This document shows positions 12,528-56,753 of a DNA stretch of 56,753 nt, one piece after another. The translations under genes were made by a program, and so were the position numbers. The stretch is from IMG/VR virus record IMGVR_UViG_3300032224_001432, positions 1 to 56,753 of that record; one strand, written 5' to 3'. This stretch comes from a virus (Duplodnaviria > Caudoviricetes). Within the stretch, counting starts at the first letter, position 1. Each line of letters starts with the position of its first letter. The notes below the pieces were generated by a model. That model had not been told where the DNA came from and ran no database searches. It saw only the letters and a list, made by a program, of their open reading frames with translations.

Positions 12528-13397
12528 ATGCTAGACGTCCAGGCTATTTACTTACGAGATACTGTACCAGCGAAAATGGTTCGTGGCGTTCTGGCTTTGT
12601 CGTACGAGACGCCCACTGACGGCACACCGATAGAGGCCTTCGTAGATGGACAAAGCACCGTATTTCTGAATAATAAAAATGGAAAAACTTTTATAGTAGT
12701 TCCTCCTGTTGGCTCTAAACAGAGTGGTTGGTCTGTTGCTCTAAATATAGCCACTGCTGGCGGACTCATAGTTAGACGTGGTTTTGGCGCTGAAAGTAAA
12801 CCAGTGCTCGCACTGCTAATAGCGATAACCATAAAAAAGTCTGGTTCTATTGCCGAAGTGTGGGTCAACTCGCAGTCTAGAACGTTCACACAAACTAGTG
12901 GTGATACGGTTCTCTGCGAGCCACCGGACAACCTAACCTCTATAGACTCAATAGAAGTTCTTACTGATAGTCCCACAATAGGAACAGCTACCGGGTTTAC
13001 ATATGCACTACAAGACAACTTAAAAACCGTAGCCGGTGCGCAGAAACTGGTGTTTCAGTTTGTGAAGCTTCTCATGACTACGCAGGGCACTGACCTATTC
13101 CACCAAGCCGAAGGCGGTAATTTGCAAAAAATACCGGGCATGCCTTTAGAGCAGGACGGTGCTGGATCACTAGGCGCACAGATATTATTGGCTGTTAATA
13201 GAACTACTGCCTACATGATAGGCGGCCAGACATTAACATCCTTACCAGCCGAAGAGCGCCTAACTAAGGCAACCATAGGAAATCTAATCTACGATAGAAA
13301 CGACCCAACTAGCGTTACCGTTTCTTTACGGCTAGAGAACTTGGCCAGAGAATCAGCTGTATTCAATTTTTTGACTAAGACGGCCGGAGGAAACTAA
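12528..13397 (+). CDS. Baseplate wedge/sheath initiator with C-terminal gp25 (GPW)-like domain
   Basis: QKLVFQFVKLLMTTQGTDLFHQAEGGNL...EERL...VTVSLRL; immediately precedes the J-like gene. Confidence 0.65.
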   Translation: MLDVQAIYLRDTVPAKMVRGVLALSYETPTDGTPIEAFVDGQSTVFLNNKNGKTFIVVPPVGSKQSGWSVALNIATAGGLIVRRGFGAESKPVLALLIAITIKKSGSIAEVWVNSQSRTFTQTSGDTVLCEPPDNLTSIDSIEVLTDSPTIGTATGFTYALQDNLKTVAGAQKLVFQFVKLLMTTQGTDLFHQAEGGNLQKIPGMPLEQDGAGSLGAQILLAVNRTTAYMIGGQTLTSLPAEERLTKATIGNLIYDRNDPTSVTVSLRLENLARESAVFNFLTKTAGGN

Positions 13398-16300
13398 TGG
13401 CTACGATTTCAGCTCGCGCTGAATTAGCGCAGTTCATGGTCGAACGTCTAGCTGAGCTAGACCCTACTCTGGCTACAACCGCCGGATCTCGTATTTATAC
13501 GGTGGTAATAAATCCACTGCTGAACAGACTAGGAGAAGATCCATTAGCTACGGATATGGAGTCCTTCATCCTAGCACGTATGCGAGATGTCTATCCTGAT
13601 ATAGATATCAATTCGCCCGGGTCAGTAGTTAGAGATATTTTTGTAAATCCTCTGCTGCTCTTGATGACACCGCTGCGAGAGGAAATAGCACATCTACGTA
13701 GGCAACAGTCGCTAGCGGACTATACCACGTTGTCAGACGTTGAGATGGACGCTCTGCTGTCCAATGTCCTAGCGTCACGTAATACGGGTTCTTTTGCTTA
13801 CGGCACTATACGCGTGTTCTTTTCCACTACCCGTGTAGTTGGCGTAGACGCCTCTATCCTATTTACCACGTCTGCAGGACAGGTATTTGTAGCTGATGAG
13901 ACTCGCCAATTCTTACCATCAGAGATGGTACGCCAAGGAAATCTTTGGTACATAGAAGTTGCTGCGAGATCTCAAACCCCGTCTACTTCATCCAACGTAG
14001 CGGCGGGCACTCCGTTTACCGTCACAGGCATAGATGGAGTAGTTAGAGCCGCCAACCCCACGGCCATCTCCGGCGGCGTTGACTCAGAGACTAATACACA
14101 GTTTTACGAGAGAGCGCTTACTGCCATAACTGAGCGCTCTCTAAATACTGAACGCGGTATCCAATCGTTTATATTCGACAACTCCACCAACATTGTCTCT
14201 GTAGATGTTGTCGGATTTGGCGACCCTTTAATGCAGCGCGACATATTGACTGCCAACGCCCCGGTTCAAATTACTGGTGTACCCGGCGGTGTGCCGTTTC
14301 CAGCTATTACCGGTGTTCCGGTAACAGTAAATCCTAATCAGGTGCATATAGGCGGAGCCACTGACATCTACGTTAAGACTGGACAAACTGCGTCCAACAC
14401 TGCCGCCGGACTATACCTTACGTCCGACAACATATCTGGTACCGTAAAAACTATTTCCATCACAGCGGGTAGCAACGTAGTTACTTCAACAGGTCTGGGC
14501 ACTTTACTAGGATTCTCTATTCCAGGAGTGTCGGTAATACCTTCTGGTACGTACACTTTAGAGCTAGAGAACCTAGACGCTAGCGGCATATCGCCATTAG
14601 CCGTCAAGATAGTAGCTGCTACTGGCGCCAATACTGTACGGGTGGATTCTGCCTTCGCCGGATTCGCTGGAGTTATGTCTGGCGTGCGTGCCCGTTTACA
14701 AACTTATGTGGACGTAGAGCTCACCTACCCAAAGAGAGTGTTGCAGGACGGTTTGATAAACACCGTTGCGGGCTCTCCCACTGTTACGTTGGTTCCTCCT
14801 AGTGTAAATACGTTTGTAAACAACCCCGCTAGCGAAGAGATCTATTTAGAGATACTGGGCACTGCGCTAGCCGGTGAATATAAAATACAAACCAAATTAG
14901 CTAGCCAGCTTGTGCTGAGCCAGGTATTGGGTATTACGCTTAATAATGTGCAGTACCGTATCTATACCAAGCAAGACGCTAAGTTCAATTTACCTATCAC
15001 TCAGTTAAAGAGCGTAACGATAAGCGATGGCGGCACGGGGGTTAAAATACCCTATGCCGATCCTATACATATCTCAGTAGCTTCTCCAGCCTCTAGACTA
15101 GCCAATCCAATAACATACGCTGATTTTGGTGCCTGTTCCGTCACAGGGACAACGTTATCGTGTACAGCGCCTAACTCGTTTCTTGTTCATGGATTACAGC
15201 AGGGAGATCTGGTGTACATACCAGAGATGATCCCTCTAAGCCAGAGTCCTTACTTCTATATAGTCAATATTACAGGAGCGACAACTATACAGCTAGACCA
15301 CGCTGTAGTTGGTGGTCCCATCGCTACTACTCAACTACTAATAGGTAGTCCTACGGTTAGCAGCACCACGTTGACTTTTATGGACCCCACCTTCTTCGAG
15401 GCTAAGAACACCTCAGTAGTGTTTACGCACACTAACGCTGCGGGAGAGGTTTACGATTTTGAACCTTCTAAAAACGTGGAAGGTTATCTTTATGCCCCAA
15501 CTGCGCTATCCACAACGTTTGTTGTAGACCCTGCAGTCAATACTCTTGTCAGTGCCGGTACGCATGACTTGCATGACATGGGCGTAAAAACTGGAGATAT
15601 CTTTGAGATACAGAGCATAGTACTAGACTCAGGTACATTTAACGCGGCGGAAGACGCAAACGTAGACGTAGGCGGTGCTCCTAATGTAGGACTATCAGTT
15701 CTGAACGTTACAGTAGATGGAATCGTAAAGCCTGTATTTTTCTCACAGATCAATCCTAGCCTAACGTCAGTCGTCTCCACTCTAAATCAGCAGCTAGGAG
15801 CTGACTTATATGCTGAACGGATAACTGTAGGCGCTAATAAGCAGCTACGCATATTTTCTAGAAAACACATAGTTTTAGCCAACGGCGTCGGCTCACCGTT
15901 AACCCACTTAAAATTGACGGGCGCTACTGACAACAGCCCTGCGGGCGTGGGCGGTGAGTTTTCAATCAGTGCCGTAGCAGCCAACGGATCTTCCGTTACT
16001 CTGTCCTCAGGAATAGGAGCCAGTGGACTGTCCAAGTCTGTATTAGTAAGAATAAAAAGACTGGGGACGCAGTACATATACCCGGCTAATATGACCTTGC
16101 AGGACAATGGTCTGTATACGGCTACTATTCAAGTGGCGTCGAAAATACCTATTTCTTTTGGCAAAGTACTAGCGAACGCAGAATGCGTTGGCTCTGGGTA
16201 TGTCTCTAGATACGGATACACGTTCAACGTAGCAAACCCAGAGTACGCGTTTTCTATTGGAGAGCAGCTATTTCTGCGAGTTTACAACCTAGTATTTCCA

Positions 16301-16756
16301 TCGACGGCTGTGTCCTTAGAGGAAGCTATCGTTGTGCCTAAAACGACTGTGGCGGTAGAGTACGAAAATGCTCCGGAGATATCTACGTTGCAGCAGGCCA
16401 TGTTGCGTAGAAGTTTACGCGTAACATGCAATAACCCGCTGATTAAATACTACCAACCGGCGTACCCGGTCATAGGTATACGGTACCAGGGGTTAGAAGA
16501 AGTAGAGACCGTCCGCACTAGTCTTCTAAACCTGATTGTTCGGCTATACCCAAACAATCCTTTAGAAGTTTATGACGTTTTAGCTGAAATAGGCAAACTA
16601 CGTGTGGATACAGTAGTAGGTCCGCTAGAAGTAGGGTATCTTACGATTGACAAGAACAGAACGCTGCGCTTGTTCAAATCTTTCGACCAAGTATCTATAG
16701 CGAGATCGTTCCATATTATGGGCGAACTAGACTACGTAGTGGTAACACGAGGGTAA
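13397..16756 (+). CDS. Baseplate wedge protein J-like (T4 gp6-like) with inserted beta domains
   Basis: PGSVVRDIF...MDALLSNVLASR...AYGTIRVFF...NPTAISGGVDSETNTQFYERA, the baseplate-J signature. Confidence 0.8.
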   Translation: MATISARAELAQFMVERLAELDPTLATTAGSRIYTVVINPLLNRLGEDPLATDMESFILARMRDVYPDIDINSPGSVVRDIFVNPLLLLMTPLREEIAHLRRQQSLADYTTLSDVEMDALLSNVLASRNTGSFAYGTIRVFFSTTRVVGVDASILFTTSAGQVFVADETRQFLPSEMVRQGNLWYIEVAARSQTPSTSSNVAAGTPFTVTGIDGVVRAANPTAISGGVDSETNTQFYERALTAITERSLNTERGIQSFIFDNSTNIVSVDVVGFGDPLMQRDILTANAPVQITGVPGGVPFPAITGVPVTVNPNQVHIGGATDIYVKTGQTASNTAAGLYLTSDNISGTVKTISITAGSNVVTSTGLGTLLGFSIPGVSVIPSGTYTLELENLDASGISPLAVKIVAATGANTVRVDSAFAGFAGVMSGVRARLQTYVDVELTYPKRVLQDGLINTVAGSPTVTLVPPSVNTFVNNPASEEIYLEILGTALAGEYKIQTKLASQLVLSQVLGITLNNVQYRIYTKQDAKFNLPITQLKSVTISDGGTGVKIPYADPIHISVASPASRLANPITYADFGACSVTGTTLSCTAPNSFLVHGLQQGDLVYIPEMIPLSQSPYFYIVNITGATTIQLDHAVVGGPIATTQLLIGSPTVSSTTLTFMDPTFFEAKNTSVVFTHTNAAGEVYDFEPSKNVEGYLYAPTALSTTFVVDPAVNTLVSAGTHDLHDMGVKTGDIFEIQSIVLDSGTFNAAEDANVDVGGAPNVGLSVLNVTVDGIVKPVFFSQINPSLTSVVSTLNQQLGADLYAERITVGANKQLRIFSRKHIVLANGVGSPLTHLKLTGATDNSPAGVGGEFSISAVAANGSSVTLSSGIGASGLSKSVLVRIKRLGTQYIYPANMTLQDNGLYTATIQVASKIPISFGKVLANAECVGSGYVSRYGYTFNVANPEYAFSIGEQLFLRVYNLVFPSTAVSLEEAIVVPKTTVAVEYENAPEISTLQQAMLRRSLRVTCNNPLIKYYQPAYPVIGIRYQGLEEVETVRTSLLNLIVRLYPNNPLEVYDVLAEIGKLRVDTVVGPLEVGYLTIDKNRTLRLFKSFDQVSIARSFHIMGELDYVVVTRG

Positions 16757-42274: not shown

Positions 42275-42293
42275 TTTTGTCTCCTTCATGGGC

Positions 42294-42323
42294 ATTATAC
42301 CAAGTAAGCGTACGTTCTTGCGA
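42294..42323 (-). promoter_or_regulatory. Candidate promoter of the replication operon: extended -10 TGGTATAAT with upstream CGCAA
   Basis: Minus strand tcGCAA gaacgtacgcttact TGGTATAAT gcccatg AAGGAG acaaaa ATG. Confidence 0.65.
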
Positions 42324-42334
42324 TGAGGAAACCG

Positions 42335-43964: not shown

Positions 43965-43972
43965 AGGCTTAC

Positions 43973-45799
43973 ATGGCTGAGACACAGTCGATTACAACTA
44001 CACTATCTAGAGCTAAGACTGTCGGTAGACCGGAGAACTACTATCCGTCCCCGTTCTTTGATCTTGCGCAGACTTATATGCCTGCGAACATCAAAGACAC
44101 CTTTGAGTGGTGTGCCTACTATTACCAAACCAATCCGATAATAAACGGCGTAGTAACAAAGTTATCCTCGTACGCCATAACAGATCTTTTGTATGGTGAC
44201 CCCGTCGAGTCCTCCACTTTTAAGAAGTTATTCGAGGGACCTCTCAATCTAAGAACTTTCTTAGTGGAATTTGGCCTTGACCGTAACTGCTTTGGCAATG
44301 CCTTTGCTTCAGTAGTGTTTCCGTTCAAAAAGATCCTAGGATGCCGCAGCTGCGGAAAACTCATAGAGGCTACGAAGGCTGACTACACGTTCAGATCTGG
44401 TAAGTTCATCCTCAAGTGCGCTAACTGCAAGTTTGAGGGAGAGGCTAGGGCTAAAGATGAGACTATACCCGCGGCCAACCAGATAAGGTTAAAGCGTTGG
44501 TCCCCTAGACAAATCACTATACGCACCAACGAGAGCACCGGCGAATGCCGTTATTTTTATTCTCTATCTCGATCAGCACGTAACGAGATATTACTAGGTA
44601 ATAGAAAGACGCTTGAGTCTACGCCACAAGCGTTCATCGATGCCGTCCACGGAAACAAGCTGATTGAGCTAGATCCTACCAAGTTGTTCCATTCACGTAG
44701 ACCTAGTATCTCACGTGATATTACGGACGCTGGCTGGGGCACTCCCCTCATTCTTCCAGTACTAAAAGACATCTTCCTTCTACAAGTTCTTAAGAAGTCC
44801 CAGGAAGTTGTCGCTATGGAGTACATCCTGCCTTTCCGCAGTTTGTATCCAGAAGTTCGTGCCGACGGTAATAACGTCTATGGTCAGGTAAATCTGACCG
44901 CATGGCAAAACAGCGTGAAGCGCGAAATTACCCAGTGGAAGAAAGACCCTGGGCACATCGCCGTATTCCCTGTACCGATAGGACAACAAGTTATGGGCGG
45001 ACAAGGCCGCTCAATGCTTCTGCACCAAGAAGTGCGTGTCTACAGCGATCAAATAATCGCCGGCATGGGCGTACCTACCGGTTTCTACTACGGTGAGGCT
45101 CTATACTCTGGCGCTAGCGTAAACCTACGCGCTATGGAAAATGAGTTCCTAGCGTACCGTCAAGATATGCAGCACCTAGTAGAGTTCTTCGTTAAGAGTA
45201 TCGCGTATGGCCTGAGCATCCAGCCGATAGACGTCAAGTTCCGCGAGTTTAAGATGGCGGACGACCTAGCGCGTGCTGGTATGGAATTCAACATGGCCAA
45301 CGCTGGACGCCTAAGCTGGCGTACGTTCCTAAGCTCACGTGGTTTCGACTACGACCACGAGAACAAGCTAATCATAAAAGAGCTTTCGGACGCAGCGGAG
45401 AAAAACAAGATCAATGCTAAGGCGCAAGCAGCTGTTCAAGCCATGATGGGTCAGGAGCAGGCTAAATCGCAAAGCGCTACACAGCGGCTAATGGCAAGAC
45501 TACAGGGAGCGGCTCCACAAGCAGCCCCTCCTCCGGGTCAGCCAGGACAGCCACCCGAAGCAGGACCTCCACAGCAGGGAGCAACGCAATCTCCACAGCA
45601 GGAGGCTTCTGGCATAGCGCAGCAACTGGCCCAGATGCCAGAAGTACAGCGCTACCAGACTTTAGCCAGAATGCGACAAGAGAATCCTGATCTGTACCAG
45701 ATGGTAAACACGATGTTGCAGGGTGGCGGTCCACAACCCGGGCAGCAGCTGCCGGAGCAGCTGCCACCTCGGGCCGAAGGATTTAATCGTCAGCTATAA
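43973..45799 (+). CDS. Portal protein with inserted Zn ribbon and Gln/Pro-rich tail
   Basis: YYQTNPIINGVVTKL, DRNCFGNAF, WGTPLI, IIAGMGVP...SGASVNL portal-type motifs. Confidence 0.75.
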   Translation: MAETQSITTTLSRAKTVGRPENYYPSPFFDLAQTYMPANIKDTFEWCAYYYQTNPIINGVVTKLSSYAITDLLYGDPVESSTFKKLFEGPLNLRTFLVEFGLDRNCFGNAFASVVFPFKKILGCRSCGKLIEATKADYTFRSGKFILKCANCKFEGEARAKDETIPAANQIRLKRWSPRQITIRTNESTGECRYFYSLSRSARNEILLGNRKTLESTPQAFIDAVHGNKLIELDPTKLFHSRRPSISRDITDAGWGTPLILPVLKDIFLLQVLKKSQEVVAMEYILPFRSLYPEVRADGNNVYGQVNLTAWQNSVKREITQWKKDPGHIAVFPVPIGQQVMGGQGRSMLLHQEVRVYSDQIIAGMGVPTGFYYGEALYSGASVNLRAMENEFLAYRQDMQHLVEFFVKSIAYGLSIQPIDVKFREFKMADDLARAGMEFNMANAGRLSWRTFLSSRGFDYDHENKLIIKELSDAAEKNKINAKAQAAVQAMMGQEQAKSQSATQRLMARLQGAAPQAAPPPGQPGQPPEAGPPQQGATQSPQQEASGIAQQLAQMPEVQRYQTLARMRQENPDLYQMVNTMLQGGGPQPGQQLPEQLPPRAEGFNRQL

Positions 45800-45924
45800 A
45801 ACGTTCGATGGAGAGCATGATCGATATCGTACCAGTCTCCGTCGAAATCCCCGTCAGGCATCACTTGTGCCCGCCGATGCCCGCCGATGCCATTCTCGAC
45901 ATCGTCATCAAACTGTGTGAACAT
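45790..45924 (-). CDS. Unannotated 44-aa acidic peptide containing DGDFDGD
   Basis: MFTQFDDDVENGIGGHRRAQVMPDGDFDGDWYDIDHALHRTFYS; GAGG RBS 8 nt upstream; preceded by the CTGCAA-N20-ATAAG motif. Confidence 0.5.
   Translation of the reverse strand: MFTQFDDDVENGIGGHRRAQVMPDGDFDGDWYDIDHALHRTFYS
45868..45891. repeat. 10-bp tandem repeat (TGCCCGCCGA x2.4)
   Basis: tgcccgccga tgcccgccga tgcc read directly. Confidence 0.85.
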
Positions 45925-45967
45925 TTCTTTTTCCTCAATAACTCGATAATAGCTACCGAGCACTATT

Positions 45968-45998
45968 CTTATTACAAATAATAGGTGCGTACTTGCAG
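45968..45998 (-). promoter_or_regulatory. Candidate phage promoter CTGCAA-N20-ATAAG, divergent from the RNAP gene
   Basis: Minus strand CTGCAA gtacgcacctattatttgta ATAAG. Confidence 0.55.
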
Positions 45999-46010
45999 TA
46001 GGAGTTAAAA

Positions 46011-49000
46011 ATGGCCAATAGCTTGCTCAACCCCGAGGGCGCGATGAAATCGCTCGAAGACGGGACGATCAACGCAGTCAGTTCGTTCTTCCCAGTAGAA
46101 GGCAAGAAGCACAAACTGGTAGCCACAAATATCTACGCAGGTAGCGACGTCGATCACGAAGATGTTGCTAGCCAGAAGAAAGCCAAGTTGCGCGGTCGCA
46201 CGTGGTCTGTGGGCGTATACGCTGACATGGACATGATCGACAAAGAGACTGGTAAGAAGATAGACAGCGTCAAGGGGATGAAGCTACTCAATCTCCCTAA
46301 GCTTACTAAGCGCTACTCCTTCATAGTTGACGGCGTTGAGTACCAAGCCGACAACCAATGGCGCCTTAAATCTGGTGTATATTCCAGACAGCGTGCTAAC
46401 GGTGAACTAGAAGCACAGTTCAACTTGGCGGAAGGTCGCGGCTTTCGCATGGACTTCTACCCAGCCAAACGCCAGTTCCTGCTGCGCTATGGTACGGCTA
46501 ATATCCAATTGCTTCCTGTACTACGAGCCCTCGGAGTTAAAGACTCAGAGATGCGTCAGTCATGGGGCGACAAGGTATTCGACGCCGTAGCCGCCAACAA
46601 GTCTCGGGGAGACGTACAGAAACTAGCCAAAGCGCTAGACTCTAGATTCTCTGGTGACGACAACGCGGCAGCTACACTTATAAAGGACAAGTACAGCCAA
46701 TCTGTATTACTGCCAGATACAACCAAGCTCACTCTTGGGAAAGAATACAATAAGGTCGAACCAGACACGCTTCTACGCGCATCTACTAAACTACTGAATA
46801 TTAACCGTGGTACGGAAGAGACTGACAACCGTGATTCACTACGATTCAAAGAACTGTGGACTATCGAGGATCACATTCCAGAGAGAATTATTAACTCTGG
46901 TAAACGCGCACAGTTTAAAATAAAGAACAACCTAGATAGAAAAGACAACATACGCGACGTAGTAACTACTGACATCTTTAATGTGCCAGTAAAGGCGTAC
47001 TTTACTACTACGTCACTGGCGCAGATGTCTCCGCAGCTAAACCCTGTTGAGATGGCCGCCGGTTTCTTACGTACCACCATTATGGGACAAGGCGCTATCA
47101 GTAGTGATCAGGCTATCTCTCTAGATGCCAAGATGATCGACCCAAGCATGTTGGGTGTTGTGGACCCAGTCCATACACCAGAAGGCAACGCAGGTATCAG
47201 TACGCACTTGACGCTAGGAACTGGCAAGCGCGGCAAAGATCCGACCATAAAGGTGTACGACACTAAGTCTAAGAAGCTTGTTGAGAAAACACCTACAGAG
47301 CTAGCCGCAGGCACTCTTGCTTTCCCAGATCAGTACGAGGAAAACAAAGACGGTCCTCCACACCCTAGACATGATCTGGTAACCGTCATACCAAAGGGCG
47401 GTGGTGACCCAACACAGGTCAAGCCTAGCGAAGTCGACTACATCATGCGTTCGCCTAAATCGATGTTCTCGGTTGTGGCTAACCTAGTTCCTTTCTTACC
47501 ATCGGACCAAGCCAACAGAGCTGGTATGGCGACCCGCCACATTAGTCAGGCTATCTCGCTAAAAGAGCGCCAAGCTCCTCTAGTGCAAGTAGCTGCCGCC
47601 ACGGGTAATCCTAAGATAGACACTTGGGAGAAAATCGTAGGTAAGACGGCGTCTAGCCAAGCCCCTGTAGACGGAACTATCTCTGAAGTAACTAATGAGA
47701 AAATAGTTATTCAGGGAGAAGACAAGAAGAAGTACGAAGTCGGTCTATACGATAACTATCCTCTTAACGAGAAGAAGTCGTACATAACCAGCCTTCCTCT
47801 TGTTAAAGCCGGCGATAAGGTAAAGAAAGACGATATTATCGCTGATACCAACTTCACCGATAAGGGCACTCTGGCACTGGGTAGAAACCTAAAGGTAGCC
47901 TACCTAGACTGGCAGGGAGCTACGTTTGAGGACGCTATCGTTGTAAGCGAGAAGGCTGCCAAAGACTTGACCAGTCTTCACCAGAGCAAGCCACGTGTCT
48001 ACTTAGACAAGGGTATGTCTCTTGGTCTATCCAGATTCAGAGCTAACTTCCCCGGTGTTGTAACCGACGAGAACGCAAAGAAGTTAGACGAAAATGGCGT
48101 TATCAAGAAAGGACAAGTTGTAAAGCCTGGCGACGTAATAATGACTGTCCTCAAAAAGACAGAGCCGTCGCCAGAACAGGTAATGTTAAAGGGCATCCAC
48201 AAAGCTCTAGCTAAGCCGTACAAAAACTCATCTGTTGTATGGGATTCCGACTACAGCGGCACTGTCACAGACGTAGCGGTTAACGGAAATGAAGTAGTAG
48301 CTTACGTCACCACCGAGGAGCCTCTTGAGATAGCTGACAAACTATCAAATAGACATGGCGGTAAGGGCGTCGTAAGTATGGTAGTTCCTACTGAGGAAAT
48401 GCCTAAGAACGCCGCTGGTGAGCCCATAGATATCATCGTGTCTCCGATGGGTGTCCCCGGTCGTATCAACATCGGTCAGGTATTAGAGACCATGTTAGGC
48501 AAGGTAGCCCATGAGAAAGGCACTACCTTTGCCGTAGACAACTTCCAGACAGAGAACGGTAAGAAGATCGTTCAGGTGGAAGGACACTACAGAACAGTTA
48601 AGGGCGAGGGCGGTCAGACCAAAGAAGTATGGGTCAAGCCGCACACGCGAGAGCTAGGCTACCAAGACATAGTCAAAGAAGTATTAGCTCAGAATAAGGT
48701 GGACGATACTGAGGAACTGTTTGACCCGCAGACCAAGAAGAGCTTCGGCAAGGTTCTAACGGGCTTTCAGTATTTCATCAAGCTTACCCACCAAGTAGAC
48801 AAGAAGATGGCTGGTCGTAGCCACGGCTACGGTAATGACTACGACGCGACACTAATACCCAAGGGTGGTGGTGATGCTGGAGCCCAGAGATATGGCGAGC
48901 TAGGTCTTTATGCCATGTTGGCGCACGGTGCTACTAACGAACTGCGCGATACAATGACGTACAAGTCTGACAAGGCGCAGCAAGATGTGTGGACAGCCAT

Positions 49001-52000
49001 ACAAACAGGCGAACCGCTGCCAGCGCCTAAAAACGCTTTTGCCTATGATAAATTCGTAGCGTATTTGCGTTCGGTAGGTCTCGATATCGAGAAAGACGGA
49101 AACGAGATGCGTCTCGTTCCGTTTACCGACGATGACATCAAGAAGGTAAGCAATGGCGCTCTTACAGACGCGTCTAAGGTCTTGCGTGGCAAAGACCTAA
49201 GACCAGAGCCGGGCGGTCTATTTGACGAGAAAATAACTGGTGGACCTGGCGGTAAGAATTTCGCACACATACCACTGGAAGAGCGTATCCCTAATCCAGT
49301 ATTCGAGCGTGCGATTATGTCGCTGCTCGGTGTCACTGGTAAAGAGTACGACTCTATTATTAGCGGGGATATGAAGATAGATGGCAAGACAGGTCCGTCT
49401 GCCATAGTCGACGCACTAGCTAAGATTAACGTGGACAGCGAACTAAAAGATGCCAAAGAAGATCTAAAAACTGCCAGAAGAAGCAACTTAGACGCCGCAT
49501 ACAAGCGTGTTAAGTATTTGACGGCAATAAAGAACATAGGCAAGAGCGCTGATAAAGCATACAGCCTAAGCGCCATTCCCGTCATTCCTCCAGTGTTCAG
49601 ACCTATCACGTCTATGGAGGGCGGCGATCTAAATGTTGATGGTGTCAACCTTCTATATAGAGATGTGGCGATGCTCAACGAGCAGTACGCATCTAGCAAG
49701 AAGGTTCTGCCTGAATCGGCACTAGCCCCTATACGTAAAGATACGTACGAAGCGGTTAGCTCTCTAATAGGCATAGACTCCAGACAAGCCGGTGTCACAG
49801 CCAATGGAGAAGTGAAGCCTCCAGGCATATTAACCATTTTGTCAGGGCGCAGCTCTCCAAAAGAAAGCTACGTCCACACGAAGCTGATGGACCGCCGTCA
49901 GGATCTAACAGGTCGTTCTGTTATTACTCCTGACCAGACTCTAGGCCTCGATCAACTTGGTTTGCCCAAAGACATTGCTTACGAGATATACCGTCCGTTT
50001 GCTGTCTCTGAGCTAACCAAAATGGGTTACACACCACTGGCAGCTAGAGAGGAGCTAGCTAAGCGCACTCCTCTTGCAGAGCGCGCCTTAGAGATCGCAA
50101 CGCAGAAGCGTCCTGTGTTCTTTAAGCGCGACCCCGTACTACATAAGTTCGGTATCATGGCCTTCTACCCAAAGCTGCACGAAGGCAAGAGCATAAAGAT
50201 CCACCCTCTAGTTACGGGCGGCTTTAATGCTGACTTCGATGGCGACACCATGGCGGTATTCGTACCAGTGTCATCACAAGCTGTTGACGACGCCAAGAAG
50301 ATGTTGCCATCAAACAACCTATTCAACTTCGGCTCTGGTAAAGTAGAGTACCAGCCAAGCCTAGGTGGACAGTTGGGACTGTATCTATCCACACAGTTCG
50401 GTAAGGACAGTGGAAAGGTGTTCTCCTCAATGAAAGACGTAGTAGATGCGTCTAACAGAGGAGAAATTGCGCCAACCGACGTCATAAAGGTCGATGGCAA
50501 AAAGACGACTGCAGGAAGAATACAAATCTATGCGGCGCTGCCAGATAACGTACGTACTGACGACATGCTTACTGACCCAGGGTTTACTCTGGAGAAGAAG
50601 AACCTTCAGAAGGTGATGAAGTCGGTAGCCACTAAAGCACCGGCAGAGTTTGCCGTTACGATGGATAAGCTGAAGAACATTGGCTTTAGACATCAGCACG
50701 ATACTGGCTTCTCGTACTCTGCCGCCGACTTCGATACCTTGTCGGAACTACGTGATAGCGTACTAAAGCAGGCTAACGCCAAGGCCAAGTTGGTACACAA
50801 CTCGTCTCTGTCACAAGCTGACAAAGATAAGAAACTTGTGCAGATCTACACAGACGCCACTGTAGAGATGACCAACAAGGCTAAGCCTCTGCTGGACAAG
50901 AGCGGTAGCAAGCTGTACGCCATGAACAAGGCAGGCACCAAGCCAGCGTGGGAACAGGTTCAGCAAATGATCCTGGCCCCAATGCTACTGGCAAATGCTC
51001 GCGGTCGTGTCATTCCAGCCCCCGTTACTCGTTCTTACGCAGAGGGTCTAGATACTGCCGGTTACTGGACCGCAAGCTCAGGTGCCAGAAAGGGACTCAT
51101 AAACAAGGTCCAGTCTGTACAGAAACCCGGTGTTTTATCTAAGCAAATAATAAACGCCACTGTACCGTACTCTGTTACGGAGAACGATTGCGGAACTACA
51201 AAGGCTGTGGCTTTGGACATAGACGAGCCGGACGTAATTGGCCGCGTTCTGCCTAAGGACGTGACTGCTGGTGGGCACACCTACAAGGCCGGTACGGTTC
51301 TTACTACCAACGTGGTAGATAAGATGAAGCAGGCCAAAGTTAGTAGAGTCGCAGTGCGCTCCGTGCTTAAGTGCCAAGCCAAGCAAGGTCTATGCCAGAA
51401 ATGCTTTGGTGAGGGCGTCGATGGCAAGTTCCCAGACATAGGCACAAACCTAGGTGTTCTGGCGGGACAGTCCATCGGTGAACGCGGCACGCAGCTAGCC
51501 ATGAAAGAGTTCCACCTAGGCGGCTTGGCTGGAACTCAAAGCCGTGTTGCCTCTGGTGTAGACAGAGTTTTCGAGCTTCTCAAGATGCCTGAAACGCTGC
51601 CCAACGCAGCCACGCTGTCTACAGTTAGTGGTAAGGTGCAAGCTGTAAACAAGAGTCCTCTAGGCGGTTTTGATATTAAGGTCGCTGGAGAAACCCACTA
51701 CGTTCCAGGTGGTAGAGAGCCTGCTGTAAAGGCAGGAGATGACGTAGAGAAGGGAGCTCGTCTGTCAACAGGCACCATCGATCCTCGTGAACTGATGGAC
51801 CTGACAGGCACAGACCAGGTGCAGCGCTACATGACGGATGAGTTACATGGCGCGTACGCATCCGAAGGTATCAAGCGTAGAAACGCTGAGGTCGTAGTAA
51901 AGGCTATGACTAATCTGTCCAGAGTTGTAGACCCAGGAGATTCTGACGAACTTATTCGCGGTGATATGGTGTCTACCAATTACGCGGAGGCGTTGAACAG

Positions 52001-52241
52001 AGAAAAGGGCTTCAAAAATCCTATCGTAACTGAACCAGTTCTACGTGGTTTAGAGACGTTACCGCTAGACAGAAGCACAGACTGGATGGCGCGTCTGCAA
52101 TACAGAAAACTAAAGGATACCTACCTGCGTGGCGCGGCTGAGGGTTGGAGATCCGATATCCATGGTATGTCGCCAGTACCTGGGTTAATCTACTCTTCTG
52201 AGTTCGGAAAGCCGCCCTCTGGCAGCAAGAGTCCTTACTAA
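46011..52241 (+). CDS. rpoBC: Single-chain fused DNA-directed RNA polymerase beta-beta'
   Basis: beta: HTPEG, DQANRAGM, FEDAIVVS, DKLSNRHGGKGVV, PMGVPGRINIGQ, KLTHQVDKK, AQRYGE. beta': LTGRSVI, RDPVLH, NADFDGD (50226-50246), GARKG bridge helix, C-x6-C-x2-C Zn site, QSIGERGTQLAMKEFHLGG trigger loop. One uninterrupted frame. Confidence 0.97.
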   Translation: MANSLLNPEGAMKSLEDGTINAVSSFFPVEGKKHKLVATNIYAGSDVDHEDVASQKKAKLRGRTWSVGVYADMDMIDKETGKKIDSVKGMKLLNLPKLTKRYSFIVDGVEYQADNQWRLKSGVYSRQRANGELEAQFNLAEGRGFRMDFYPAKRQFLLRYGTANIQLLPVLRALGVKDSEMRQSWGDKVFDAVAANKSRGDVQKLAKALDSRFSGDDNAAATLIKDKYSQSVLLPDTTKLTLGKEYNKVEPDTLLRASTKLLNINRGTEETDNRDSLRFKELWTIEDHIPERIINSGKRAQFKIKNNLDRKDNIRDVVTTDIFNVPVKAYFTTTSLAQMSPQLNPVEMAAGFLRTTIMGQGAISSDQAISLDAKMIDPSMLGVVDPVHTPEGNAGISTHLTLGTGKRGKDPTIKVYDTKSKKLVEKTPTELAAGTLAFPDQYEENKDGPPHPRHDLVTVIPKGGGDPTQVKPSEVDYIMRSPKSMFSVVANLVPFLPSDQANRAGMATRHISQAISLKERQAPLVQVAAATGNPKIDTWEKIVGKTASSQAPVDGTISEVTNEKIVIQGEDKKKYEVGLYDNYPLNEKKSYITSLPLVKAGDKVKKDDIIADTNFTDKGTLALGRNLKVAYLDWQGATFEDAIVVSEKAAKDLTSLHQSKPRVYLDKGMSLGLSRFRANFPGVVTDENAKKLDENGVIKKGQVVKPGDVIMTVLKKTEPSPEQVMLKGIHKALAKPYKNSSVVWDSDYSGTVTDVAVNGNEVVAYVTTEEPLEIADKLSNRHGGKGVVSMVVPTEEMPKNAAGEPIDIIVSPMGVPGRINIGQVLETMLGKVAHEKGTTFAVDNFQTENGKKIVQVEGHYRTVKGEGGQTKEVWVKPHTRELGYQDIVKEVLAQNKVDDTEELFDPQTKKSFGKVLTGFQYFIKLTHQVDKKMAGRSHGYGNDYDATLIPKGGGDAGAQRYGELGLYAMLAHGATNELRDTMTYKSDKAQQDVWTAIQTGEPLPAPKNAFAYDKFVAYLRSVGLDIEKDGNEMRLVPFTDDDIKKVSNGALTDASKVLRGKDLRPEPGGLFDEKITGGPGGKNFAHIPLEERIPNPVFERAIMSLLGVTGKEYDSIISGDMKIDGKTGPSAIVDALAKINVDSELKDAKEDLKTARRSNLDAAYKRVKYLTAIKNIGKSADKAYSLSAIPVIPPVFRPITSMEGGDLNVDGVNLLYRDVAMLNEQYASSKKVLPESALAPIRKDTYEAVSSLIGIDSRQAGVTANGEVKPPGILTILSGRSSPKESYVHTKLMDRRQDLTGRSVITPDQTLGLDQLGLPKDIAYEIYRPFAVSELTKMGYTPLAAREELAKRTPLAERALEIATQKRPVFFKRDPVLHKFGIMAFYPKLHEGKSIKIHPLVTGGFNADFDGDTMAVFVPVSSQAVDDAKKMLPSNNLFNFGSGKVEYQPSLGGQLGLYLSTQFGKDSGKVFSSMKDVVDASNRGEIAPTDVIKVDGKKTTAGRIQIYAALPDNVRTDDMLTDPGFTLEKKNLQKVMKSVATKAPAEFAVTMDKLKNIGFRHQHDTGFSYSAADFDTLSELRDSVLKQANAKAKLVHNSSLSQADKDKKLVQIYTDATVEMTNKAKPLLDKSGSKLYAMNKAGTKPAWEQVQQMILAPMLLANARGRVIPAPVTRSYAEGLDTAGYWTASSGARKGLINKVQSVQKPGVLSKQIINATVPYSVTENDCGTTKAVALDIDEPDVIGRVLPKDVTAGGHTYKAGTVLTTNVVDKMKQAKVSRVAVRSVLKCQAKQGLCQKCFGEGVDGKFPDIGTNLGVLAGQSIGERGTQLAMKEFHLGGLAGTQSRVASGVDRVFELLKMPETLPNAATLSTVSGKVQAVNKSPLGGFDIKVAGETHYVPGGREPAVKAGDDVEKGARLSTGTIDPRELMDLTGTDQVQRYMTDELHGAYASEGIKRRNAEVVVKAMTNLSRVVDPGDSDELIRGDMVSTNYAEALNREKGFKNPIVTEPVLRGLETLPLDRSTDWMARLQYRKLKDTYLRGAAEGWRSDIHGMSPVPGLIYSSEFGKPPSGSKSPY

Positions 52242-53356
52242 TGATAGAGCTAGCCAAAGTAATAAAGGTCAGCCCTAGAGAGAAGACGGTAGACCTACAA
52301 TGCGTCAACACACATCGCACTCCGATGTCTGTTCCGCTTATCTATCAGAACATGCACCCGGACCATGATGGCGGTACGGACTTCATGCCTGAAGAAGGTG
52401 CCTACTGCTTCATAGCTTTCCCCACTGATGGTAGTTCTCCAGCCATTCTGGGATTTGTAAATAAGCCTAGTTATGGAGCAGCCGTAGATGATTCTGGCAC
52501 AGCTCTAGAAGAGCCTGATCCTGTACCAGAGCTTAGCTACTCATACAACAGAGCCGCGCTGGACCCAGGCGACCATCGAGTAGCAACCGCTGACGGAAAT
52601 CATTTGACTCTTCGTAGAGGCGGTGTAGTCGAGATAGGGTCTACGCCCCTATCCCAGTTAATGTTCATACCTATAGAAAACGTAGTGCGCTTCTACGCGC
52701 AGCGCTATCAACTACGTTCTCCGTTGGGTGAAATAGATTGGGGACACGTAGAACTGACTAATAACGGCTCGATTAAATTCGATGCTAATAAAGCTACGCC
52801 TGTTTTAGTTAGATACGGGATAAAAGAGACTGCCCAAGAGAACGTTACCGAGCACTACACCGTAGAGGTACGTGCCGGACAAGTTGATCCTGAAACACAG
52901 GACGGCGCAAACGTAGCACATCATTTTGCCCACACGTTTAGCCAACAATCAGTACAACAGTTCACACCACCAAAAGATAAGGGCGTAATATCTATATGTG
53001 TGTTTGACCACACTAATAACAACGCCGGTACTTTCGTATTTCAGGTGAACCGTGACGGTAATGTATACGTTAGCGCTGCCGTAGATGTGTTCATACATGC
53101 TAGAAAAGCGTATCTAACGGCAGAAGAACTAAAGGCCAAGATTGCTACAATCGTGGCACTTGAGTCGCCTAAGATAATACTTGGAGCTCTAGCAGATGGA
53201 TCAGTGGTTCCGGATGGAATTTATAAAGCGCTGTTAGGAGAAGCGGTCATAAACTGGCTGAACTCACACACGCACTCCCATCCGATGGGTCCTACGCTAA
53301 CGCCAGTAGACCCTGCAACTAGCGCGCTCCTATCAGACGTTGTAAAACTAAAATAA
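52241..53356 (+). CDS. Baseplate central spike (P2 gpV / gp138-like)
   Basis: N-terminal OB-fold pattern MPEEGAYCFIAF...AILGFV; C-terminal NSHTHSHPMGPT HxH tip; TAATG-coupled to the RNAP stop. Confidence 0.75.
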   Translation: MIELAKVIKVSPREKTVDLQCVNTHRTPMSVPLIYQNMHPDHDGGTDFMPEEGAYCFIAFPTDGSSPAILGFVNKPSYGAAVDDSGTALEEPDPVPELSYSYNRAALDPGDHRVATADGNHLTLRRGGVVEIGSTPLSQLMFIPIENVVRFYAQRYQLRSPLGEIDWGHVELTNNGSIKFDANKATPVLVRYGIKETAQENVTEHYTVEVRAGQVDPETQDGANVAHHFAHTFSQQSVQQFTPPKDKGVISICVFDHTNNNAGTFVFQVNRDGNVYVSAAVDVFIHARKAYLTAEELKAKIATIVALESPKIILGALADGSVVPDGIYKALLGEAVINWLNSHTHSHPMGPTLTPVDPATSALLSDVVKLK

Positions 53357-53375
53357 TACTTAACAGGTGCCTACT

Positions 53376-56300
53376 ATGACTGAGGCTCAGCTAAAAGATG
53401 CACTACTAGCCGCGTACCGCGCCTATAACACCACAGACGAATCTGCGGTTAAGCATGCGCTAATAGACTTTATCAATACGCTTACTGTCGGTGTAGCTGA
53501 CCTTCAGGCTGAGCCAGAGAAGTCTAAGCAATTAGAATACATAAAGTACCAGCAATATTTGATATCTGACAAGTTCGCAGAAACGTTTATAGATGAGCAA
53601 ACCACCGGTGCATATCTCAGCGTAATAAAAAACGCTGTAGGAGTGGACTCCACCGTAATTAGCGTTAGCACGCCTGTAAATCTAGGCGGCGTGACTATAC
53701 AAAACACAGACGTACAAGGCATAAATACTCCTGCAGCGTGGGCCGCAGGGTCTTACGCACAGAAATCGGTAGTCACTCACATAGGCAGTACTTGGTTTGC
53801 TAACTCGGCCACCGTGGCTGCAGATGTTCCAGGCACTTCTTCTAAATGGGTTCTTCATAACATAGCAGGCACGCCTAGAATAGTTCGCGTTAAACTATCC
53901 GGCGGTCCACCACAAGTTAATGACCAGATACGTCTGTCCATAGGCGCTACCCAGTACACCTATACGTTTACGGCTAACGACACCACCGTAAACGATCATG
54001 TGGCAGGCTTATCTAAGCTAGCATCTGTAAACACCAGTTACAAAATAGCGAACACAACATCGGCTTTAAAAGAACTGAGCGTAGGCGTAGCCAATAGTGT
54101 GTGGCAAACGTCTTTAACATCCATTGGCATATTCCTGTGGCAACCTCAGATCTATCCAATCAATTCCGTCGTTTTTTACAACAGTCAAACATGGGTTAGC
54201 ACGGGAGCTACCACGGCGGCTGACGTACCAGGCACGTCTCCTTTATGGATAACATACACCATCGGATCAGCTGGTGGTGACCTTACTGGTACATATCCCT
54301 ACCCCACACTTGCTGCTATTACTACAGCTACCACCAAGGGTAGCTCTACTAAGGTTCCAGTTATTACCATTGATACAAAGGGACGAGTTACGTCTCTTAC
54401 CGACGTAGACGTATCCGGAGGCGGAGGAGCACCCAGCGGTCCTGCTGGTGGCGACCTTACTGGAACCTACCCAAATCCTACGCTAGCTGCTGTAGCAACC
54501 GCTGCTACCAAGGGGTCAGCGTCTAAGTCTGTTACAGCGACCATTGACGCAAAAGGACGCGTTACATCTCTGAGTGATCAGGATATTGCAATCACCAAGG
54601 CCCAAGCAGGGTTAGCTAACGTCGACAACACAGCAGATGCCAGCAAGAATGTGCTCTATGCGACTACCGCAGGAAGTGCTCCTCCATCAGGGTCGGCTGG
54701 CGGCGACCTGACCGGAAACTATCCGAACCCCACCCTCGCGAGCGTCACGACCGCCGCTACCAGGGGGGCGGCCGACAAGACCGTCACCGTGACGTTGGAC
54801 GCTAAGGGTCGGATAACCACGCTGACCGAGCAGTCCATCTCGATCACACCGTCTCAGGCGGGTCTCGGCAACGTCGACAATGTCCAGCAGATCCCCATAT
54901 CGTATCTGGATACCGACGGGACGCTGGCTGCAAACTCTGACACCAAGGTTCCCAGTCAGAAGGCGGTGAAGACCTACGTCGATACGGTGGCTACCGGTGT
55001 CATGCGCTTTATGGGCAGCACTGACTGCTCCGCCAACCCTAACTACCCGAGCGCCAAGAAGGGTGAAGCCTACGTGGTCTCGGTGGCGGGAAAGATCGGC
55101 GGAGCATCTGGCATTACTGTTGAGGTGGGCGACGTGTACGTCGCCATTGCCGACAACGCTGGCGGAACACAAGCGGCCGTTGGCTTTAGTTGGGACGTTC
55201 TGCAGTACAACATCGTTGGCCCATTATTAGCCAGTAATAATCTATCCGATCTGACCAACACCGCAACGGCGCGGACGAACATTGGCCTGGGTAATGTCGA
55301 CAACACGGCGGACGCCAATAAGAACGTCCTGTACGCCGCTACGGCGGGTGGGGCTCCACCTACGGGCGCGGCTGGTGGAGATCTGACTGGGACCTATCCG
55401 AATCCTACCTTGGCAGCCGTTGCTACAGCAGCCACCAAAGGGTCTGCATCCAAGACTGTGACGGCGACCATCGATGCAAAGGGCCGCGTCACATCCTTGA
55501 GTGATCAGGACATTGCAATCACGGAGAGCCAGGTTACGAACCTGACCACCGACCTTGCCGGCAAGCTGTCGCTGACCGGTGGCTCGATGACGGGCAACAT
55601 CACGTTCGACGGTGTGCACACGGTCAAGGGCATCCCGTCGCCCTCCACAGGAACGGATGCCGCGAACAAGGCGTACGTGGACTCGGTGGCCGGTGGAGCA
55701 ACGCCTGGTCTGTATGGTTCGTTCTACGACACGACCAACCAATACGCCGCAGCCATCAACACCGGTTACCCGATTACGCTTGATACGCCTGTCGAGTACA
55801 ATGGGGTGTCGATTGTCAGTGGCAGCCGCATCACCGTTGCCTCAGGCGGCGTGTTCAACATCCAGTTCTCCGCACAGCTGGTCAACGAGGACACGTCGAT
55901 TCGCGAAGTTACCATGTGGATCAAGCTCAACGGCGTCAATGTGACGTACTCTGCGGGCGCGGTCAGCGTGCCCAATAGCCACGGCGGCACGCACGGGCAG
56001 ATTATCGCGGCGTGGAATTATGTGATGACGCTGGCTGCGGGAGACTACATTCAGTTCTACTGGGAGACGCCCAGCACGCAGGTCCATATTGAGCCTGTGC
56101 CGGATGGCGCGGCGCCTGTCAGCCCGAGCATGATTGTCACTGTGCAGCAGGTCGCCTCGACCGTTGCTGGACCGACAGGTCCTGCAGGAACGAGTCTGCT
56201 GTACGGCAGCACGGCTCCTGGTTCGGGCACGGGCAACGACGGCGACTTCTACATCAACACGACGAACAACTACCTGTACGGCCCGAAGGCCTCAGGTGCG

Positions 56301-56753
56301 TGGCCCAGCGGTACGCCGCTCACCGCAGGTACTGGTCCGGCAGGTGGTGACCTTACAGGAACGTATCCGAATCCCACACTTGCGGCTGTTGCAACTGCTG
56401 CCACCAAAGGAACAGCTGCCAAGTCCGCAACAGTCACTATCGACGCGAAAGGCCGCGTGACATCAATAACAGAACAGGACATTGCAATCACCAAGGCCCA
56501 AGCGGGGTTGGCCAACGTGGACAACACGTCGGACGCCACGAAGAACGTACTCTATGCAACCACGGCAGGCGGTGCACCTCCTACCGGAACAGCGGGCGGA
56601 GACCTCACAGGAACGTACCCAAACCCCACACTGGCAGCGGTTGCTACTGCGGCTACCTTGGGGTCTGCCACCAAGTCACTGACGGTCACGATCGACGCCA
56701 AGGGGCGCGTGACGTCGATGACGGAGAACACAATCACCGCGACCGACTCGACC
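53376..56753 (+). CDS. Long modular fibre protein (>1126 aa, runs off the window; absent from the ORF track)
   Basis: Manual translation MTEAQLKDALL... is open to the end; two Trp-rich CBM-like modules, six AGGDLTG repeats, GLGNVDN motifs, C1q-like domain near 55710-56150. Confidence 0.85.
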   Translation, partial: MTEAQLKDALLAAYRAYNTTDESAVKHALIDFINTLTVGVADLQAEPEKSKQLEYIKYQQYLISDKFAETFIDEQTTGAYLSVIKNAVGVDSTVISVSTPVNLGGVTIQNTDVQGINTPAAWAAGSYAQKSVVTHIGSTWFANSATVAADVPGTSSKWVLHNIAGTPRIVRVKLSGGPPQVNDQIRLSIGATQYTYTFTANDTTVNDHVAGLSKLASVNTSYKIANTTSALKELSVGVANSVWQTSLTSIGIFLWQPQIYPINSVVFYNSQTWVSTGATTAADVPGTSPLWITYTIGSAGGDLTGTYPYPTLAAITTATTKGSSTKVPVITIDTKGRVTSLTDVDVSGGGGAPSGPAGGDLTGTYPNPTLAAVATAATKGSASKSVTATIDAKGRVTSLSDQDIAITKAQAGLANVDNTADASKNVLYATTAGSAPPSGSAGGDLTGNYPNPTLASVTTAATRGAADKTVTVTLDAKGRITTLTEQSISITPSQAGLGNVDNVQQIPISYLDTDGTLAANSDTKVPSQKAVKTYVDTVATGVMRFMGSTDCSANPNYPSAKKGEAYVVSVAGKIGGASGITVEVGDVYVAIADNAGGTQAAVGFSWDVLQYNIVGPLLASNNLSDLTNTATARTNIGLGNVDNTADANKNVLYAATAGGAPPTGAAGGDLTGTYPNPTLAAVATAATKGSASKTVTATIDAKGRVTSLSDQDIAITESQVTNLTTDLAGKLSLTGGSMTGNITFDGVHTVKGIPSPSTGTDAANKAYVDSVAGGATPGLYGSFYDTTNQYAAAINTGYPITLDTPVEYNGVSIVSGSRITVASGGVFNIQFSAQLVNEDTSIREVTMWIKLNGVNVTYSAGAVSVPNSHGGTHGQIIAAWNYVMTLAAGDYIQFYWETPSTQVHIEPVPDGAAPVSPSMIVTVQQVASTVAGPTGPAGTSLLYGSTAPGSGTGNDGDFYINTTNNYLYGPKASGAWPSGTPLTAGTGPAGGDLTGTYPNPTLAAVATAATKGTAAKSATVTIDAKGRVTSITEQDIAITKAQAGLANVDNTSDATKNVLYATTAGGAPPTGTAGGDLTGTYPNPTLAAVATAATLGSATKSLTVTIDAKGRVTSMTENTITATDST
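54270..56730 (+). repeat. Six coding repeats AGGDLTG[TN]YP[NY]PTL...T[IL]D[AT]KGR[VI]T
   Basis: Starts at 54270, 54444, 54696, 55371, 56340 and 56592, all in frame; mostly synonymous divergence. Confidence 0.9.

Follow-up and report, generated by a model that had tools for sequence, protein, structure and literature searches.

Can a tailed phage encode a bacterial-type RNA polymerase as one polypeptide, and could such an enzyme be carried into the cell with the phage DNA? This question is raised by the IMG/VR virus record IMGVR_UViG_3300032224_001432 (Duplodnaviria; Caudoviricetes), in which a gene at positions 46011..52241 on the plus strand encodes a 2076-amino acid (aa) protein that has the features of both large RNA polymerase subunits, β and β'. 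The window analysed here is the whole record, 56,753 bases long; with a CheckV completeness of 32%, it is a fragment of a phage of ~180 kb. The protein is an intact, conserved, single-chain β-β' core with a co-conserved sigma factor, and its gene heads a unit with a tail spike gene. We consider it likely that it is a sigma-dependent polymerase of the bacterial type with a whole catalytic core, which is packaged together with the phage sigma factor and delivered with the DNA.

The fused β-β' chain and its catalytic core

The polymerase gene is an ATG-initiated frame of 2076 codons with no internal stop, and an AGGAG sequence sits 8 nt 5' of its ATG (46011). A Pfam search of the protein placed Rpb2 (β) domains 3, 6 and 7 at residues 338-996, followed by Rpb1 (β') domains 1, 2, 3 and 5 at residues 1144-1870. 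When solved structures were searched with phmmer, the first 1080 residues matched bacterial β over nearly its full length (8syi_C 29-1054; E 4e-89), and the C-terminal half matched bacterial β' (E 5e-116). Together with the motif alignment given below, this bears out an earlier note on this DNA, made from the sequence alone, which had read one 2076-aa open reading frame (ORF) with the catalytic motifs of both subunits. End-to-end alignment with the cyanobacterial β chain (8syi_C 29-1054) delimited the β module to residues 1-1027 (46011..49091), and alignment and structure search delimited the β' module to residues 1033-2076 (49107..52238); these and all further polymerase features are on the plus strand. 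The last β strand and the first β' strand are separated by the linker KDGNE, residues 1028-1032 (49092..49106), in the sequence ...AYLRSVGLDIE(1027)-KDGNE-MRLVPFTDDDI... The join had been placed near 49090-49105 with about four residues, and it has five. An AlphaFold2 model of residues 940-1500, built from a 36-sequence alignment, had a mean predicted local distance difference test score (pLDDT) of 81.2. The junction was modelled as a β hairpin with strands at 1024-1029 and 1032-1037 (block pLDDT 81-87), suggesting that the KDGNE linker is therefore a tight turn. A Foldseek search with this model returned bacterial β' or cyanobacterial γ chains as all of the top 50 matches (best E 4e-31).

A protein search across 5.8 billion clustered proteins gave 514 matches at E <= 1e-10 among 7999 scored candidates. 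The best 120 of these 514 were all fused, with lengths of 2010-3258 aa and 40-80% identity, and lay on contigs of up to 199 kb, typically 170-190 kb. Scanning IMG/VR with the single polymerase protein as query returned no relatives; an alignment-based scan found relatives encoded in 597 of 666 candidate stretches, and 58 loci were retained. The polymerase was a single open frame of 2048-2868 aa in 51/51 loci covering the whole protein, a count biased to fused forms since these loci are those most like the fused query. Residues G1023, G1030 and P1037, which flank the junction, are invariant across 24 aligned relatives. The single frame in all 51 loci rules out a sequencing error hiding a stop at the junction, a concern raised in the earlier note, and the single-chain fusion is real rather than an assembly artefact. 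A search limited to proteins of 576-1836 aa found a few apparently separate β' chains on long contigs (P0124, P0139, P0140 and P0154), which nest within the fused clade in the tree.

Many polymerase genes of the clade contain intein or homing-endonuclease domains (PF14528, PF14890, PF05204 and PF03161) and reach 2400-3258 aa (P0003, P0005, P0012, P0015 and others; loci L023, L024, L026, L027, L030, L033, L052 and L053). Because these families are recorded for many long relatives, the eight longest of the 51 loci (at least 2489 aa) probably carry inteins. In one complete genome, the polymerase match breaks directly after the NADFDGD loop (query residues 1411-1413). The window polymerase is free of such domains.

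To map the elements of the core, ten family members were aligned with β and β' of Salmonella (E. coli numbering), Acinetobacter, Enterococcus and Staphylococcus, and eleven metagenomic bacterial sequences were added to the β' alignment. A mixed alignment of whole chains and separate subunits scattered the subunit ends, and separate β and β' alignments were used instead. The residue mapping comes from these alignments, and the stretches are those that we take to be the bridge helix, trigger loop, lid, rudder and other elements. The catalytic NADFDGD loop is at residues 1406-1412 (50226..50246), and D1408, D1410 and D1412 of this double-psi barrel magnesium loop are invariant in 24 relatives. 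The basic loop of the β barrel (E. coli 1062-1069 region) is kept as NRHGGKGV at 780-787, including the active-site loop RHGGKG at 781-786. Also kept are the bridge helix, with GARKGL at 1691-1696, and the trigger loop, which lacks the E. coli insertion and reads GERGTQLAMKEFHLGG at 1823-1838. The lid, rudder and clamp-helix region is retained at residues 1197-1276, with the β' clamp helices, the predicted docking site for the phage sigma factor, at 1207-1256 (49629..49778). A flap-tip-like helix lies in the β module at about 715-730. The second β' zinc site is kept (51189..51404); its ligands C1727, C1788, C1795 and C1798 are invariant in 24 relatives and are the only four cysteines in the whole polymerase. 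In contrast, the N-terminal zinc-binding domain of β' is missing. The alignment has a 32-residue gap after residue 1077 (49239..49244), relative to residues 64-95 of Salmonella/E. coli, 62-93 of S. aureus and 53-84 of P0177, and there is no cysteine before residue 1727, compared to four in the bacterial domain (E. coli 70-88).

The protein is 673 residues shorter than E. coli β plus β' (2749 - 2076), in agreement with the ~670 aa estimated before. The description of the enzyme as streamlined holds for its length, but most of the difference (475 of the 673 residues) falls in segments that are also absent in S. aureus, namely β 225-306, 319-358, 938-1049 and 1125-1178 and β' 944-1130. These ~475 residues are proteobacterial insertions and not a reduction of the core, and the real core loss is the N-terminal zinc-binding domain of β'. 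Compared to S. aureus, the protein also lacks β' 138-168, 551-566 and 591-624 and ~110 residues of the β lobe region. A 35-residue insertion at 852-886 is present only in part of the clade. In the rifampicin pocket, the positions aligned to E. coli D516 and H526 are occupied by P and G. Since we take D516 and H526 to be known rifampicin resistance positions, the enzyme is predicted to be rifampicin-insensitive.

Relatives, a probable sigma partner and the alpha and omega subunits

Among 50,697 phage genome records, the nearest relatives were the Vibrio phages D181, D148 and D69 (187 kb) and the Salmonella phage Arash (181 kb), at ~30% identity. Arash gp206 aligns across the junction over query residues 20-1507, and D69 0261 does so over 7-1463. 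These phages share with the window the β-β' junction fusion, a polymerase gene after the portal gene and a homologous sigma factor in the virion-gene block. They differ in that the C-terminal part of β' is a second gene: gp206 (1525 aa) holds all of β and the front of β', and gp216 (606 aa), nine genes on, holds the rest. In D69, the same two chains are encoded with two small ORFs between them. The split point corresponds to residues of about 1495-1500 (50493..50510), where the chain is continuous in the window and in the 51/51 full-length IMG/VR relatives. Arash and D69 are also without the 852-886 insertion and have 36-38 extra residues after 1124. The β-β' junction thus appears common to the whole group, with the window's clade set apart by its unsplit β'. 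The gene order in Arash (OQ632216) is two helicase genes (-), a structural protein gene (+), four small genes (-), portal gp204, gp205 and gp206.

Two quick maximum-likelihood trees were built from the N-terminal half of β' (LG+C20), with Shimodaira-Hasegawa-like approximate likelihood ratio test (SH-aLRT) support; both are unrooted and have long branches. In the first (66 rows), the phage family including Arash and D69 formed one group (SH-aLRT 100), with all 34 bacterial β' across the branch (support 97). In the second (52 rows), the phage group again had an SH-aLRT of 100 and all 31 bacterial β', 27 of which are labelled and represent 19 phyla, lay opposite with a support of 96. In both trees, Arash and D69 either form the sister group of the window's clade or join it at a base that is unresolved. 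The Rhizobium and Vibrio Va2 proteins sat on long branches outside the clade, and Carin-5 β' was omitted as it had no BLAST match to the N-half query. Nesting in an ordinary bacterial rpoBC clade, raised in the earlier note, was seen in neither tree. For the bacteria sampled, the trees exclude nesting within a bacterial group and are compatible with an ancient bacterial origin.

Clade phage contigs of 72-176 kb are binned in metagenome-assembled genomes labelled Desulfatibacillum, Myxococcales, Anaerolineales, Leptolyngbyaceae and Thermoplasmata (loci L090-L098). Members from bins labelled Chloroflexota, Thermodesulfobacteriota, Cyanobacteriota and Thermoplasmatota grouped with the phages, against their labels. 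Host assignment from the bacterial bins was rejected because the bin labels are discordant, and polymerases binned in this way may be mistaken for an organism's own rpoBC. Separately, three phage-collection records filed as Enterococcus, Acinetobacter and Staphylococcus phages (OR846602, CAKLQH020000005 and OR844998; L069-L071) carry ordinary bacterial rpoB-rpoC, with rplJ-rplL also upstream in the Acinetobacter-labelled record; this looks like host contamination of the collection.

A sigma-70-family factor of 331 aa is encoded in the window at 6065..7060 (+), embedded in the virion-gene block. It matches Pfam region 3 and PHROG 351 (E 1e-16), weakly resembles SigA and RpoS across regions 1.2-3, and ends in a region-4-like C-terminus in the family alignment. 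The protein has no cysteines. An N-terminal extension of ~100 residues with an H-x-R repeat-like stretch is common to part of the clade. A homologue was found in 10/10 relatives' records, and matches among the 50,697 phage records were confined to Arash gp10, the three Vibrio phages and one faecal fragment. Arash gp10 belongs to a virion-gene block, where a large cell-wall hydrolase precedes it; likewise, the window's sigma gene follows the gene of a 1106-aa protein. A complex model of β' 1028-1445 with sigma 100-331 scored 0.70 (0.69-0.71 in three runs) compared to 0.02 for the best of three controls; the mark used for this score was reached by 116/157 solved complexes and 2/215 mismatched pairs. 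At least 34% of contacts agreed between runs, and the partner pLDDT was at least 71. The modelled interface joins β' 1209-1248, in the clamp helices, to sigma 116-160 and 191-195. The model thus shows a likeness to solved holoenzymes rather than binding, with the canonical clamp-helix/sigma interface kept in form, and it suggests that this sigma factor is the cognate partner of the polymerase. The sigma factor and the loss of the β' zinc-binding domain are both additions to the earlier note.

We next considered the other subunits. No alpha or omega family matched any of the 40 window ORFs in Pfam, in keeping with what had been read from the sequence. The search for rpoA was extended to related records: the alpha N-terminal domain PF01000 was over the cut-off in 0/10, including the whole Arash and D69 records, with one sub-threshold match of 12.5 bits inside an 802-aa frame. 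Five complete clade genomes (178-181 kb; CheckV 100%; four with terminal repeats) had no match over the Pfam cut-off for PF01193, the alpha C-terminal domain or omega (0/5 each). In 14 control genomes, PF01000, PF01193 and omega were found in 14/14, and the alpha C-terminal domain in 13/14 (over the cut-off in 10). Each of the five complete genomes has one β-β' gene and no second paralogue at E <= 0.01.

Virion gene context and the case for packaging

The polymerase gene lies between a portal gene and a central spike gene. The portal protein (608 aa; 43973..45799, +) has 27% identity over 563 aa to Arash gp204 (E 6.6e-73). The spike (gp5/VgrG/gpV-like, 371 aa; 52241..53356, +) starts within the polymerase stop codon (TAC TAATG, 52239-52243). 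The window's own spike had no Pfam match, including to Phage_base_V, Gp5_trimer_C and Gp5_C, and none among the 50,697 phage records; its assignment comes from homologues and fold. Its 37 homologues include 13 with the Phage_base_V oligonucleotide/oligosaccharide-binding domain, eight with Gp5_trimer_C and seven with Gp5_C. The best Protein Data Bank (PDB) matches of its AlphaFold2 model (pLDDT 71) were spikes of contractile injection systems, VgrG, phi92 gp138, R2 pyocin and P2 gpV, with probability 1.0, E-values of 1.6e-4 or weaker and low template modelling scores, which are attributable to modelling a monomer of an intertwined trimer. The order helicase (-), two genes, portal, polymerase, spike is kept in most loci whose flanks extend that far.

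Portal and polymerase are 211 nt apart, and this gap contains a promoter-like motif as well as a putative ORF on the minus strand. The position after the portal and the TAATG coupling to the spike described in the earlier note therefore stand, but the portal is not directly adjacent; likewise, of the virion operon proposed there, the unit with the spike holds and the portal is not part of it. The motif, TATTCTTATTAC at 45964..45975 (+), lies 35 nt before the polymerase ATG and is the counterpart of CATAGTTCTTATACC, which is common 35-45 nt 5' of the polymerase ATG in relatives of ~57% identity (loci L005-L031). The exact 10-mer occurs in 3-6 copies per complete relative genome, compared to 0-2 for the reversed control, and 11/12 exact sites in the complete relatives are in the orientation of the polymerase gene. 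A tighter pattern had two matches in the window versus 0.15 expected, but as these two sites had served to define it, the test is not an independent one. The window has two loose copies of the CATAGTTCTTATACC-like (TTCTTATAC-type) motif, at 45964-45975 and 27762-27773 (+), both intergenic. A strong hairpin (CCCCCTACTA...TAGTAGGGGG) comes after the second copy, which faces genes of the minus strand and so may give rise to an antisense transcript or a small RNA. A direct-repeat search for repeated promoter-like DNA in the window found only coding repeats. Over 42000-56753, a sigma-70-type promoter scan gave 7 sites versus 13.0 expected, which is uninformative, and there were 16 terminator-like sites versus 12.9 expected. 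The putative ORF (44 aa; 45790..45924, -) has its own ribosome-binding site. Relatives have one or two conserved small minus-strand genes in this gap, which encode a Cys-rich (zinc-ribbon-like) protein of ~71 aa and a short peptide ending ...DLADAVEKSL... (compared in loci L005, L007, L009, L011, L014, L022, L025 and L029); the window's candidate is unrelated to these.

Virion proteomics of Arash purified on a sucrose gradient bears on packaging. In the part of that report used here (PMC10585845), gp206 is the most detected protein, with 100% coverage, 128 unique peptides and 3516 spectra, compared to 1333 spectra for the major capsid protein, 1210 for gp216, 877 for the portal and 467 for sigma gp10.

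Based on these results, we propose the following arrangement. β and β' would be joined head to tail by the five-residue hairpin turn, which corresponds to the point of contact between the two chains in the cellular clamp, and this chain and the sigma factor of 6065..7060 would form a two-polypeptide holoenzyme in which sigma region 2 docks on the β' clamp helices. Polymerase and tail spike would form one transcription unit, with the polymerase gene first and the conserved promoter-like motif ahead of it, and the enzyme is therefore probably made together with virion proteins. Polymerase and sigma would be packed in the capsid and ejected with the DNA, and would start phage transcription without the host enzyme; the β-β' enzyme would be the only polymerase of this ~180-kb phage type. 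Expression timing, packaging and injection in this order are the most likely course given the gene context and the relative's proteomics, and independence from alpha and omega is suggested by their absence from the relatives searched. The proposal in its fullest form, a capsid-borne holoenzyme of a 230-kDa chain and sigma, lacking alpha, omega and the β' zinc-binding domain and serving as sole polymerase for the whole phage programme, is put forward tentatively, with the odds somewhat against it.

Several points weigh against this proposal. Natural bacterial β-β' fusions (Helicobacter and Wolbachia) still use alpha, and fusion alone is therefore no argument for alpha independence. The window is 32% of a genome, and the lack of alpha in this particular phage is a reading from its relatives. 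The sigma docking model may come from a memory of solved holoenzymes. The loose motif ATTCTTATAC, with 2 mismatches, was found 39 times in the window versus 49.7 expected, showing no enrichment, and no clear ORF lies downstream of the remaining exact matches to the motif in three complete relatives, so that no promoter class could be defined. The trees are quick and unrooted and have long branches. The case for packaging comes from Arash, which is only ~30% identical and has a different chain layout. Finally, the Arash preparation listed 116 proteins, including ribonucleotide reductases, and its authors allow for carry-over of abundant infection proteins (PMC10585845, as far as used here).

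The alternative that best survives, though we regard it as rather unlikely, is that the single chain needs a host alpha dimer, and perhaps omega, and acts as a phage-made β/β' replacement within a host-type core. The retention of alpha by the bacterial fusions agrees with this, as does the near full-length alignment to bacterial β and β', by which alpha-facing surfaces may persist, and no alpha substitute was identified. However, identity to bacterial sequences is only 28-33%, no alpha or omega domain was over the Pfam cut-off in the records searched (ten for PF01000; five each for PF01193, the alpha C-terminal domain and omega), and an enzyme delivered by the virion would have to bring host alpha along. 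The polymerases of phages phiKZ and AR9, moreover, function without alpha and do not bind it, according to the parts of reviews used here.

Slightly less probable still is a non-virion enzyme that serves middle or late transcription only, with host RNA polymerase reading the early genes and the Arash signal being carry-over. Co-transcription with late virion genes would also fit a late transcriptase, and the carry-over that the Arash authors raise is in line with it, since the 116 proteins called structural include metabolic enzymes. The amount argues the other way: in the same data (PMC10585845), gp206 has 2.6 times the spectra of the major capsid protein and 128 unique peptides. The gene also lies between portal and spike throughout the clade. 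Furthermore, there is one polymerase per genome, whereas the non-virion enzymes of phiKZ and AR9, in the review sections consulted, accompany a virion set.

A recently captured or mis-binned bacterial rpoBC fusion is highly improbable: the best NCBIfam model is indeed the Helicobacter-type fused β/β' NF007172 (624 bits) and relatives occur in bacteria-labelled bins, but 624 bits is far under the cut-off of 5372, the discordant taxa sit on 72-176-kb contigs whose binned genes group with the phage clade, phage genes lie all around, and the sampled bacterial β' are all across a supported branch.

The window as a whole falls into three blocks: virion genes on the plus strand (1-27 kb), replication genes on the minus strand (27-42 kb) and a further plus-strand block from 42 kb. 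The virion block includes a baseplate J-like protein (13397..16756). The replication block (-) encodes a family A DNA polymerase, a primase, a DnaB-like helicase, a UvsX-like recombinase, RusA, a Cas4-like nuclease, a uracil-DNA glycosylase-family protein and a superfamily 2 helicase. A GC-rich hairpin (GGGGCAATCATCTAAATGATGGTTGCCCC type) at 27235-27262, in the 48-nt gap between the two blocks, is probably a bidirectional terminator. Downstream of the spike, a large repeat-containing, fibre-like protein (53367..56753, +; 1129 aa or more) runs off the contig. It has weak tail-fibre and Por_Secre_tail matches and five to six diverged copies of an 82-175-nt coding repeat (unit ...GGDLTGTYPNPTLAAV...) at 54259-56752 (+), where the GC content reaches 0.57.

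Comparison with known polymerases

The suggestion that the lineage itself may be known is partly right, since the Arash polymerase genes are annotated in PMC10585845, where the part used here leaves the chain architecture undiscussed. In the open-access and bioRxiv texts searched, we found no description of the fully fused form, the lineage being in print only as the Arash annotations, and the parts of reviews of phage multisubunit polymerases used here do not mention it. The 'moraphage' paper (PMC12619734) was set aside, as the part used describes a different lineage without the polymerase. The fully fused single-chain form appears to be new within the Arash group of phage-encoded bacterial-type polymerases, and its clade is large, environmental and biochemically unstudied.

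To our knowledge, no bacterial-type RNA polymerase characterised so far assembles without an alpha dimer as its platform. If our proposal is correct, the clade's enzyme, with fused β-β', sigma kept and no alpha encoded, is the simplest known of its type, and these ~180-kb phages do without host RNA polymerase and are not affected by rifampicin. This opens to testing the actual need for alpha and for the β' zinc-binding domain, the packing and ejection of a 230-kDa enzyme, and the running of an entire phage programme by one polymerase. A further use could be in vitro and in synthetic biology, as a compact and orthogonal system for sigma-dependent transcription. Cultured relatives (Arash and the Vibrio phages) put such experiments within reach.

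The Helicobacter and Wolbachia fusions (NF007172 and NF011417) resemble the window protein in carrying β then β' in one chain. Their models have ~2840-2890 positions, and the window protein reaches 624 and 489 bits against cut-offs of 5372 and 4632. The cellular fusions retain the zinc-binding domain, and their enzymes include alpha and omega. Since the phage clade lies outside the sampled bacteria, its fusion probably arose independently of theirs. Bacterial-like large subunits also occur in other phages, as sigma-β-β' sets in Cobetia phage Carin-5 and Yersinia phage YerA41 and as β' in Rhizobium Kleczkowskaviridae. These genes differ in being separate, in not lying beside the portal and in having only ~24-25% identity. 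In Carin-5 (L074), the sigma gene is directly upstream in a sigma-β-β' row. In Rhizobium phage RHph_TM21B (L072), β' follows a DNA polymerase A gene.

The virion polymerases of crAss-like phages (two-barrel, YonO/RdRP-like) and of N4 (T7-like) are each one very large polypeptide that is packaged, injected and reads early genes. They differ from the window's enzyme in not being collinear with cellular β/β' and in having no sigma, and the N4 fold is unrelated. The multisubunit polymerases of phiKZ and AR9, in the parts of reviews used here, have no alpha, omega or sigma homologues; the phage particles carry and inject one of the sets, and rifampicin does not stop infection. They share with the window's clade phage-encoded enzymes of the β/β' type without alpha or omega, but are made of four to five polypeptides in two paralogous sets, use no sigma-70-family factor and are far more divergent. 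phiKZ and AR9 took the opposite route, with many pieces and sigma dropped, whereas the polymerase of the window's clade is a single chain, present as a single set and with a genuine sigma-family factor as its partner.

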